From NCBI RefSeq assembly GCF_003334815.1, contig NZ_QOWO01000017.1: a DNA stretch of 64,000 nt. One strand, 5' to 3'. The notes under the pieces are model-generated. The model made no database searches and was not told the origin of the DNA. It worked only from the letters and a program-made list of their open reading frames with translations. Both the position numbers and the translations under genes were made by a program. The number at the start of each line of letters is the position of its first letter. Position 1 is the first letter of the stretch. Positions 27,008-38,114 of the stretch are shown here, piece by piece. This stretch comes from Escherichia coli. Lineage in GTDB: Bacteria; Pseudomonadota; Gammaproteobacteria; Enterobacterales; Enterobacteriaceae.

Positions 27008-28000
27008 ATGCGACATAGCGTACTTTTTGCGACAGCGTTTGCCACGCTTATCTCTACACAAACTTTTGCTGCCGATCTGCCGGGCAAAGGCATTACTGTT
27101 AATCCAGTTCAGAGCACCATCACTGAAGAAACCTTCCAGACGCTGCTGGTCAGTCGTGCGCTGGAGAAATTAGGTTATACCGTCAACAAACCCAGCGAAG
27201 TAGATTACAACGTTGGCTACACCTCGCTTGCTTCCGGCGATGCAACCTTCACCGCCGTGAACTGGACGCCACTGCATGACAACATGTACGAAGCTGCCGG
27301 TGGCGATAAGAAATTTTATCGTGAAGGGGTATTTGTTAACGGCGCGGCACAGGGTTACCTGATCGATAAGAAAACCGCCGACCAGTACAAAATCACCAAC
27401 ATCGCACAACTGAAAGATCCGAAGATCGCCAAACTGTTCGATACCAACGGCGACGGAAAAGCGGATTTAACCGGTTGTAACCCTGGCTGGGGCTGCGAAG
27501 GTGCGATCAACCACCAGCTTGCCGCGTATGAACTGACCAACACCGTGACGCATAATCAGGGGAACTACGCAGCGATGATGGCCGACACCATCAGTCGCTA
27601 CAAAGAGGGCAAACCGGTGTTTTATTACACCTGGACGCCGTACTGGGTGAGTAACGAACTGAAGCCGGGCAAAGATGTCGTCTGGTTGCAGGTGCCGTTC
27701 TCCGCACTGCCGGGCGATAAAAACGCCGATACCAAACTGCCGAATGGTGCGAATTATGGCTTCCCGGTCAGCACCATGCATATCGTTGCCAACAAAGCCT
27801 GGGCCGAGAAAAACCCGGCAGCAGCGAAACTGTTTGCCATTATGCAGTTGCCAGTGGCAGATATTAACGCCCAGAACGCCATTATGCATGACGGCAAAGC
27901 CTCAGAAGGCGATATTCAGGGACACGTTGATGGTTGGATCAAAGCCCACCAGCAGCAGTTCGATGGCTGGGTGAATGAGGCGCTGGCAGCGCAGAAGTAA
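27008..28000 (+). CDS. proX: Glycine betaine-binding periplasmic protein
   Basis: N-terminus [21 protein letters not shown] (signal peptide), 330 aa. Confidence 0.95.
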
Positions 28001-28008
28001 TTTTTATT

Positions 28009-28090
28009 CGGGCGGATAAGGCGTTTTTGCCGCATCCGCCGTTCTGTGCACAATGCCTGATGCGACGCTGGCGCGTCTTATCATGCCTAT
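28009..28090. repeat. REP palindromic element(s) after proX
   Basis: GGCGGATAAGGCGTTTTTGCCGCATCCGCC and CCTGATGCGACGCTGGCGCGTCTTATCATGCCTA. Confidence 0.55.
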
Positions 28091-28191
28091 AAACCACATC
28101 GCACATTTCAACAATCTATCTTTCATCCCATATTCATCAACATCCGCTATTATTGATTTCCAGCTTAATCATCACCTGATGAACAAAAATA

Positions 28192-29376
28192 ATGACTAAA
28201 CCTAATCATGAGCTTAGCCCGGCGCTGATCGTGCTGATGTCTATCGCCACCGGTCTGGCGGTAGCCAGTAACTATTACGCCCAGCCATTGCTCGACACCA
28301 TCGCGCGTAACTTTTCCCTTTCCGCCAGTTCGGCAGGCTTTATTGTTACCGCCGCGCAGTTGGGCTATGCCGCAGGTCTACTGTTTCTTGTTCCCCTCGG
28401 TGATATGTTTGAACGCCGCCGCCTGATTGTCTCGATGACCTTACTGGCGGCATGCGGCATGTTGATTACCGCCAGCAGTCAGTCGCTGGCGATGATGATC
28501 CTCGGTACGGCATTAACCGGTTTATTCTCAGTCGTGGCACAAATTCTGGTTCCGCTGGCAGCGACGCTGGCTTCACCGGATAAACGCGGCAAAGTGGTTG
28601 GCACTATTATGAGCGGTCTGCTGTTGGGGATCTTGCTGGCACGGACAGTTGCCGGATTGCTGGCGAATCTCGGCGGCTGGCGCACCGTCTTTTGGGTTGC
28701 TTCGGTGTTAATGGCACTGATGGCGCTGGCATTATGGCGTGGTCTGCCACAAATGAAATCAGAAACCCACCTCAACTACCCACAGTTGTTGGGTTCCGTT
28801 TTCAGTATGTTTATCAGCGATAAAATTCTGCGTACCCGCGCGTTGCTGGGCTGCCTGACCTTTGCCAATTTCAGCATTCTCTGGACCTCAATGGCCTTTT
28901 TGCTTGCCGCTCCACCTTTTAACTACAGCGATGGTGTCATTGGTCTGTTTGGACTTGCGGGAGCTGCCGGAGCGTTGGGCGCTCGTCCGGCGGGCGGTTT
29001 TGCCGATAAGGGCAAATCGCACCACACCACAACTTTCGGTCTGCTGCTGCTATTACTTTCATGGCTGGCGATCTGGTTTGGTCACACTTCCGTACTGGCG
29101 TTGATTATCGGAATCCTGGTGCTGGATCTCACCGTGCAGGGCGTGCATATCACTAACCAGACGGTAATTTATCGGATACATCCTGATGCGCGCAATCGCC
29201 TGACCGCAGGTTACATGACTAGCTACTTTATTGGCGGTGCCGCCGGTTCGCTAATTTCAGCCTCAGCCTGGCAACATGGCGGTTGGGCTGGCGTTTGTCT
29301 GGCTGGCGCGACGATTGCCCTGGTTAACTTACTGGTCTGGTGGCGAGGTTTTCATCGTCAGGAAGCCGCAAATTAA
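28192..29376 (+). CDS. ygaY: MFS-family transporter, uninterrupted 394-aa ORF
   Basis: Multi-TM hydrophobic profile; synteny between proX and ygaZ. Confidence 0.75.
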   Translation: MTKPNHELSPALIVLMSIATGLAVASNYYAQPLLDTIARNFSLSASSAGFIVTAAQLGYAAGLLFLVPLGDMFERRRLIVSMTLLAACGMLITASSQSLAMMILGTALTGLFSVVAQILVPLAATLASPDKRGKVVGTIMSGLLLGILLARTVAGLLANLGGWRTVFWVASVLMALMALALWRGLPQMKSETHLNYPQLLGSVFSMFISDKILRTRALLGCLTFANFSILWTSMAFLLAAPPFNYSDGVIGLFGLAGAAGALGARPAGGFADKGKSHHTTTFGLLLLLLSWLAIWFGHTSVLALIIGILVLDLTVQGVHITNQTVIYRIHPDARNRLTAGYMTSYFIGGAAGSLISASAWQHGGWAGVCLAGATIALVNLLVWWRGFHRQEAAN

Positions 29377-29499
29377 GCAATCAGCAACCGTTTTCGTGGC
29401 TTTACACTTATAAGGGTGTTAAGAAGCCCATCAGTCTGATAAGGTTAAGATATTCATTCAGTCTATTTATAATATTAACAATCGTTAAGCGTACACTCT

Positions 29500-30237
29500 A
29501 TGGAAAGCCCTACTCCACAGCCTGCTCCTGGTTCGGCGACCTTCATGGAAGGATGCAAAGACAGTTTACCGATTGTTATTAGTTATATTCCGGTGGCCTT
29601 TGCGTTCGGTCTGAATGCGACCCGTCTGGGATTCTCTCCTCTCGAAAGCGTTTTTTTCTCCTGCATCATTTATGCAGGCGCGAGCCAGTTCGTCATTACC
29701 GCGATGCTGGCAGCCGGGAGTAGTTTGTGGATTGCTGCACTGACCGTCATGGCAATGGATGTTCGCCATGTGTTGTATGGCCCGTCACTGCGTAGCCGTA
29801 TTATTCAGCGTCTGCAAAAATCGAAAACCGCCCTGTGGGCGTTTGGCCTGACGGATGAGGTTTTTGCCGCCGCAACCGCAAAACTGGTACGCAATAATCG
29901 CCGCTGGAGCGAGAACTGGATGATCGGCATTGCCTTCAGTTCATGGTCATCGTGGGTATTTGGTACGGTAATAGGGGCATTCTCCGGCAGCGGCTTGCTG
30001 CAAGGTTATCCCGCCGTTGAAGCTGCATTAGGTTTTATGCTTCCGGCACTCTTTATGAGTTTCCTGCTCGCCTCTTTCCAGCGCAAACAATCTCTTTGCG
30101 TTACCGCAGCGTTAGTTGGTGCCCTTGCAGGCGTAACGCTATTTTCTATTCCCGTCGCCATTCTGGCAGGCATTGTCTGTGGCTGCCTCACTGCGTTAAT
30201 CCAGGCATTCTGGCAAGGAGCGCCCGATGAGCTATGA
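29500..30237 (+). CDS. ygaZ: AzlC-family branched-chain amino acid (L-valine) exporter subunit
   Basis: 245 aa membrane protein. Confidence 0.85.
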
Positions 30238-37666: not shown

Positions 37667-37743
37667 TGGTGCATCCGGGAGGATTCGAACCTCCGACCGC
37701 TCGGTTCGTAGCCGAGTACTCTATCCAGCTGAGCTACGGATGC
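37667..37743 (-). tRNA. tRNA-Arg (anticodon ACG)
   Basis: Reverse complement GCATCCGTAGCTCAGCTGGATAGAGTACTCGGCTACGAACCGAGCGGTCGGAGGTTCGAATCCTCCCGGATGCACCA. Confidence 0.9.
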
Positions 37744-37941
37744 ATCGGGAAAACTTATTCTACTGCTGATATTGATACCGCTACTAAAGCCATATCAATT
37801 AAGAGATGGTGCATCCGGGAGGATTACTCGCCTTGCGGCTCGCCCTTCGGGCCGTTGCTAAAGCAACGTTATCATCCCTAGTGCCTGCGGTTAATACCGC
37901 TATCTCTTCGATACCTTCATTGCTGAAGGTTACGGAGAATA

Positions 37942-38018
37942 TGGTGCATCCGGGAGGATTCGAACCTCCGACCGCTCGGTTCGTAGCCGAGTACTCTATC
38001 CAGCTGAGCTACGGATGC
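37942..38018 (-). tRNA. tRNA-Arg (anticodon ACG), second identical copy
   Basis: Identical 77-nt sequence 275 bp downstream of the first copy. Confidence 0.9.
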
Positions 38019-38021
38019 AAA

Positions 38022-38114
38022 TGGCGGTGAGGCGGGGATTCGAACCCCGGATGCAGCTTTTGACCGCATACTCCCTTAGCAGGGGAGCGCCTTCAGCCTC
38101 TCGGCCACCTCACC
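38022..38114 (-). tRNA. serV: tRNA-Ser (anticodon GCU)
   Basis: Reverse complement GGTGAGGTGGCCGAGAGGCTGAAGGCGCTCCCCTGCTAAGGGAGTATGCGGTCAAAAGCTGCATCCGGGGTTCGAATCCCCGCCTCACCGCCA, long variable arm. Confidence 0.9.

Follow-up and report, generated by a model that had tools for sequence, protein, structure and literature searches.

We analysed a 64,000-nucleotide stretch of Escherichia coli DNA, referred to here as the window, around the gene ygaY. The gene lies between proX, which ends at 28000, and ygaZ, which starts at 29500; these flanks are annotated identically in strain 720632 and in MG1655. The ORF listing gave a single uninterrupted frame of 394 aa at 28192..29376 (+), with an ATG start and 0 internal stops, confirming the original prediction of an uninterrupted MFS-like ORF between proX and ygaZ. 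The features to which we refer are the following:

28001..28191, + strand: proX-ygaY spacer with a REP-type dispersed repeat at ~28010-28100 (genome search, promoter scan, sequence)
28192..29376, + strand: intact ygaY, putative MFS transporter (ORF listing, Pfam MFS_1, YnfM homology, hydropathy, TCDB assignment)
28447..28461, + strand: perfect tandem repeat of GCGGCAT, 2.1 copies (Tandem Repeats Finder, alignments)
28453, + strand: T of codon 88 (TGC, Cys) (DNA and protein alignments)

PGAP sets the identical start and stop of ygaY in other strains, including 720632 (99.9% identical here), and thousands of 394-aa YgaY homologs exist. Together with dN/dS values of 0.01-0.05, this shows that ygaY is a real gene and no chance ORF. 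The dN/dS values were obtained by the Nei-Gojobori method for pairs drawn from five E. coli alleles and three outgroups, and they ranged from 0.008 to 0.054 in 28 of 28 pairs, with dS up to ~1.2. WP_000165680.1 of strain 720632 and the other 394-aa orthologs are equal in length to the window protein, 93-100% identical to it and set in the same neighbourhood. Homologs of 394 aa with 93-99% identity were found in Shigella, E. fergusonii, E. marmotae, E. albertii, Citrobacter, and Salmonella. The window protein showed no substantial difference from these orthologs; at position 88, the window and the K-12 haplotype have Cys, and most others have Gly. The gene order is also conserved: the window locus reads proVWX-ygaY-ygaZH-emrR-emrAB, and the block proVWX-ygaY-ygaZH-emrR-emrA is present in E. 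fergusonii and Citrobacter. A Salmonella-type contig (SRR30627628_29, 3001-5212) shows another arrangement, in which ygaY is directly followed by emrR and the ygaZH pair is absent.

The Pfam profile MFS_1 (PF07690) matched both six-helix halves of YgaY, at 8.5e-32 for residues 17-273 and at 3.2e-11 for residues 218-385. A Kyte-Doolittle scan with a 19-residue window detected ~9 separate hydrophobic segments (11 peaks listed, some overlapping) and did not resolve all of the weaker C-terminal helices; 12 TM helices are the expectation for the family. BLASTP against MG1655 YnfM (b1596) produced an end-to-end alignment with 26% identity over ~390 residues (E=6e-21). This fits distant membership of the YnfM ('acriflavin-sensitivity') family, to which YgaY (P76628) has been assigned as TC 2.A.1.36.3 with function unknown (Hassan et al. 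2017, PMC5417439). These comparisons place YgaY among the inner-membrane MFS transporters of TCDB 2.A.1.36, the YnfM family. By analogy, it is most likely a proton-coupled secondary transporter and probably works as an exporter, as do the characterised transporters nearest to it. YnfM itself is a distant paralogue, the function of which is not transferable to YgaY.

A closer assignment was not obtained from the profiles. NCBIfam gave generic MFS matches only, all far under their curated cut-offs, with best full-length scores of 64 bits (cut-off 401) and 53.9 (cut-off 400); the sugar-efflux, Cmx/CmrA, and Bcr/CflA models aligned along the whole protein. A named MFS equivalog (SotB-type sugar efflux, Cmx/CmrA, Bcr/CflA, or EmrD) was thus ruled out. 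The PDB sequence search returned weak MFS matches only, the nearest being GlcP, EmrD, and SotB. Full-length similarity to EmrD (2gfp) and SotB (6kki) was weak (E=5e-5 and 4.5e-4, respectively), and the resemblance to DHA1 exporters of this type is one of fold and class only.

The original prediction took ygaY to be annotated as a pseudogene in the K-12 reference, and this proved correct. In the MG1655 RefSeq record, ygaY (b2681) is an annotated pseudogene of 1,178 nt at 2808316-2809493, and PGAP flags the gene as 'frameshifted' in the K-12 derivatives NEB 5-alpha and MC1061. When we searched the literature for what intact YgaY does, the papers found dealt only with K-12 ygaY, which they used as a pseudogene, as a site for integration, or as a landmark in chromatin. 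The Keio ygaY deletion has served as a pseudogene control (Price et al., 10.1101/072470), and other papers use the K-12 locus as a neutral integration site. ygaY transcripts have been detected in K-12, where the gene was called cryptic and an H-NS bridge was described that is anchored at ygaY on one side and reaches the proU downstream regulatory element (Rashid et al. 2023, PMC10656529). In the same study transcript levels were low, responded to StpA, and fell along ygaY.

We found neither a consensus sigma-70 promoter nor a strong Shine-Dalgarno sequence upstream of ygaY, and a promoter and terminator scan of 27900-29600 did not rise above chance and gave no convincing signal ahead of the gene. 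A 1,501-nt query that included the spacer repeat had 53,552 matches in 5,426 genomes, with a median of 8 in each, a count explained by the REP-type repeat upstream of ygaY. The proX-ygaY spacer itself varies: some strains are without the first ~100 bases of the match, and H9Ecoli has ~100 extra.

The purifying selection on ygaY suggests that the window allele is functional, and we infer that it would be expressed and active. The frame could nevertheless be intact in the window and the gene silent or dispensable, for example through H-NS/StpA silencing beside proU, in which case 'functional' would overstate the finding. Such a state would agree with the upstream region just described, with the H-NS-bound and bridged chromatin and the low, StpA-responsive transcripts of K-12 (PMC10656529), with the good growth of K-12 without ygaY and the use of the deletion as a neutral control (10.1101/072470), and with an independent loss of the gene in the clinical isolate S115 (see below). 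We nevertheless consider it unlikely. dN/dS stays at 0.01-0.05 from E. coli to Salmonella and Citrobacter, the length and synteny of the gene are conserved, and its transcripts are detectable even in K-12 (PMC10656529). The strong purifying selection and the conserved length and synteny argue that YgaY is used under some natural conditions. Very tentatively, YgaY could be a conserved and selected transporter that has gone unstudied because K-12 lacks it, with a possible role in osmotic stress or metabolite efflux. This suggestion comes from the fixed place of the gene between the proVWX importer and the exporters ygaZH and emrAB, in the H-NS/StpA-structured proU domain.

The difference between the two alleles is confined to a single site. 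In the pairwise alignment, rechecked against MG1655, the sole difference in the ORF was a stretch of 7 bp at 28447-28453 that is missing in K-12. All 1,178 bases that the window ORF has in common with K-12 MG1655 ygaY (b2681; P76628) are identical, and the flanking genes are the same, proX upstream and ygaZ downstream. K-12 is therefore not identical across the ORF; identity would have refuted the original prediction. At this site the window carries a perfect tandem GCGGCAT-GCGGCAT (28447-28460, codons 86-90). Tandem Repeats Finder scored it with period 7, 2.1 copies, and 100% matches and reported no other tandem repeat in the ygaY ORF. The window reads CTG GCG GCA TGC GGC ATG TTG, and the repeat codes for Ala86-Ala87-Cys88-Gly89-Met90 in predicted TM3. 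With its single GCGGCAT unit, K-12 reads GCG GCA TGT TGA and thus has a TGA stop after residue 88; the translated product ends in ...MTLLAAC. By hydropathy the stop falls in the third hydrophobic segment of YgaY (residues 78-96), so the product corresponds to two and a half helices of the MFS fold. The one-copy lesion of the K-12 pseudogene is absent from the window. With two copies of the unit, the window has the intact allele, as opposed to the pseudogene allele of K-12.

Could K-12 still make a partly functional product by re-initiation at Met90? The K-12 sequence GGC ATG TTG A places an ATG 1 nt ahead of the premature TGA (ATGTTGA, window 28458-28464), and this ATG opens a 305-codon frame identical to the remaining C-terminal part of YgaY. 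Overlapping stop and start codons of this kind can support termination-reinitiation. The product, however, would be without TM1, TM2, and half of TM3 and so would be unlikely to fold or transport, and transcript levels drop along K-12 ygaY (Rashid et al., PMC10656529). We regard a re-initiated, partly functional YgaY in K-12 as very improbable.

We scored the state at the 7-bp site with an 80-nt query across the K-12 junction, which matched 5,405 complete E. coli genomes. Identity to this K-12-allele query was ≥99% in 354 genomes, 95-99% in 0, and ≤92% in 5,051. All 55 of 55 full-length matches sampled from the ≤92% group spanned 87 bases, which is the two-copy length. The two-copy, intact-length state thus amounts to ~5,051 of 5,405 complete genomes (~93%). 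A reciprocal 87-nt window query agreed with the split given by the 80-nt query and returned 682 exact 87-mers. The one-copy carriers that were listed, 60 of the 354, are all K-12 lab strains or resemble K-12 in genome size and coordinates; they include MG1655 sublines, C600, J53, DH5alpha, DH1, RR1, NCM3722, HMS174, and AG100. HB101, BW25113, EC600, NEB Turbo, and ER2796 are further one-copy carriers, likewise of K-12 type. Among the strains sampled, the one-copy state was restricted to K-12 strains. The original prediction had placed the window in a lineage retaining a functional allele. The allele is indeed intact, and selection suggests that it functions, but there is nothing special about the lineage: the window has the ancestral form that is the norm in ~93% of genomes, and K-12 is the exception.

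The outgroup orthologs align without a gap at the 7-bp site, both as protein and as DNA. Taken together, the allele counts, the outgroup orthologs, the synteny, and the dN/dS values point to intact ygaY as ancestral, near-universal, and under strong purifying selection and to the K-12 state as a derived loss. It is thus very probable that the window carries the wild-type ancestral ygaY and that the K-12 copy was lost by a 7-bp deletion of one unit, with slippage as the most likely cause. Under the reverse polarity, K-12 would have kept an ancestral single copy, and a 7-bp duplication in the window lineage would by chance have opened the long ORF; this reading has in its favour that tandem duplication of 7 bp is a common mutation type and that the alleles differ by that unit only. 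The outgroup alignments ruled it out: E. fergusonii, E. marmotae, E. albertii, Citrobacter, and Salmonella all have 394 aa and no gap at the site, and most of them do not have the repeat in their DNA and so could not stem from a duplication. With 93% of E. coli genomes carrying the long form and a dN/dS of 0.01-0.05 indicating a long-standing coding frame, the likelihood left to this reading is negligible. Early K-12 annotations contained frameshift errors, but it is hardly credible that K-12 ygaY is really intact and that the pseudogene reflects an error of sequencing or annotation in the reference. The identical one-copy 80-mer is present at 100% in 354 complete genomes of K-12 derivatives that were assembled independently, including MG1655 resequencings, C600, DH5alpha, DH1, J53, HB101, and MC1061, and this ruled out a reference sequencing error.

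To return to the derived loss in K-12, the perfect repeat at the lesion site is itself not universal. In the DNA alignment the perfect GCGGCAT-GCGGCAT was found in the window, 720632, and ABW_A19 only. BL21 reads GCGGCAG-GCGGCAT, and ST131, strain 10671, and E. fergusonii read GCAGCGGGCGGTATG, with no repeat. At 28453 the window has T where BL21 has G, which turns Gly88 (GGC) into Cys88 (TGC); this is the sole non-synonymous difference between the window and BL21 ygaY. Gly88 (GGC) is found in BL21, in the sampled B2 and O157-type strains, in other Escherichia species including E. fergusonii, and in Citrobacter. One Salmonella ortholog naturally has Cys88 in the protein alignment, which argues that Cys88 is tolerated. 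A 40-nt probe detected the K-12-like haplotype, the only one with a perfect repeat, in 1,041 genomes, made up of the 354 one-copy genomes and ~687 genomes with two units.

We propose that ygaY became a pseudogene in two steps. A tolerated G-to-T substitution (Gly88Cys) would have created the perfect 7-bp repeat and with it a slippage-prone site. Replication slippage in the strain ancestral to the K-12 stocks would then have removed one GCGGCAT unit and shifted the frame, so that translation ends after residue 88, inside TM3. Gly88Cys, by making the repeat perfect, probably set up the slippage deletion. Slippage is the most likely mechanism of the K-12 loss, judged from one event, and parsimony suggests that G88C came first and the deletion second. 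The perfect-repeat site does not seem strongly unstable, as there was one loss event and ~687 natural genomes keep both units. C600, W1485-derived MG1655, the HB101 hybrid, and MC1061 are early-diverging lines of the K-12 pedigree, and all of them have the 7-bp deletion; the deletion would thus predate the split of the K-12 lines. An explicit description of this two-step route may be absent from the literature.

A second lesion was found at the same place. In the urine isolate S115 (NZ_CP158441), ygaY is annotated as 'frameshifted' with a length of 1,166 nt (2782-3947 of the S115 locus). The gene has a 19-bp deletion of ORF columns 252-270, equivalent to window 28443-28461, which lies between two TTA triplets in a BL21-like haplotype and removes the segment of the K-12 lesion site. 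This is a second, independent loss at the spot of the K-12 lesion, and it could have arisen by chance or from a local deletion-prone context.

The contrast between an intact ygaY and the K-12 pseudogene is already known from the reference annotation and the literature, and our result changes nothing in current understanding. What it adds is the exact lesion (one 7-bp unit lost at codons 86-88), the restriction of the lesion to K-12 among 5,405 genomes, as sampled, the Gly88Cys change behind the perfect repeat, and the strong purifying selection on the intact gene. Strong selection maintains this transporter gene in nearly all other E. coli, and K-12 is without it. For work in K-12, ygaY is a common choice of 'neutral' integration site or pseudogene control, and this practice is not transferable to other strains. 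The 7-bp site is also a clean marker for telling K-12 lab strains apart from the natural strains nearest to them, even though the rest of the region is ~99.95% identical.

The window is one such relative. Whole-window BLAST against MG1655 2779000-2848000 gave two colinear blocks. Window 72-38019 differed from MG1655 by 13 mismatches, four of them in tRNA-Arg spacers, and by the 7-bp indel; window 37666-64000 differed only in the tRNA-Arg spacers, where the alignment is paralogous, and in a patch at norV/norW. The ygaY position is colinear with MG1655 and the sequence near-identical, which identifies the window gene as the orthologue of ygaY (b2681). These comparisons indicate that the source of the window is a natural strain very closely related to K-12. 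With the indel among about a dozen differences in 38 kb, the ygaY lesion is probably recent. The best natural match over 24 kb of the window was strain G1/2, and the K-12 derivative MC1061 was colinear with the window save for the 7 ygaY bases. The window also appears to share the K-12 pseudogene structures pinH and ygaQ (4000-9700, based on MG1655), so that in this stretch ygaY alone differs. Between 78 and 28446, window and MG1655 are colinear and no indel separates them. The norV/norW patch (52253-54055) has 36 SNPs against MG1655 in 1.8 kb, versus ~10 SNPs in the other ~60 kb, and looks like a short imported recombination tract.

The original prediction also took a difference in tRNA-Arg copy number as fitting the intact ygaY, and this part did not hold. 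At 37667-38114 (-) the window has two tRNA-Arg(ACG) genes and tRNA-Ser(GCU), and MG1655 has four tRNA-Arg genes (argQ, argZ, argY, argV) and serV. However, MC1061, a K-12 derivative with a frameshifted ygaY, also has two, which ruled out the copy number as an independent lineage marker. Only 61 of 5,426 genomes were colinear over window 20000-44000. This count and the two copies of MC1061 suggest that the two-copy tRNA-Arg array is uncommon and arises repeatedly. Because the array contracts by recombination within lineages, the tRNA-Arg count does not corroborate the ygaY state.

Two minor features lie near the window start. At 5638-5713 (-), ARAGORN reports a tRNA-Met (CAT) where MG1655 annotates ileY, a tRNA-Ile(CAU); the label is a tool artefact, as the ileY anticodon is read as Ile after modification. 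No alignment to MG1655 was obtained for the first ~71 bases of the window (within 1-77); the corresponding point of MG1655 is inside ypjA (~2780194). No genome in the collection was colinear across this IS/ypjA junction. The only full-length match to window 1-77 was in NCTC10444, in two pieces and under the annotation 'IS5-like element ISKpn26 family transposase'. The window thus seems to start within the terminal part of an IS5-family element that has inserted into ypjA.
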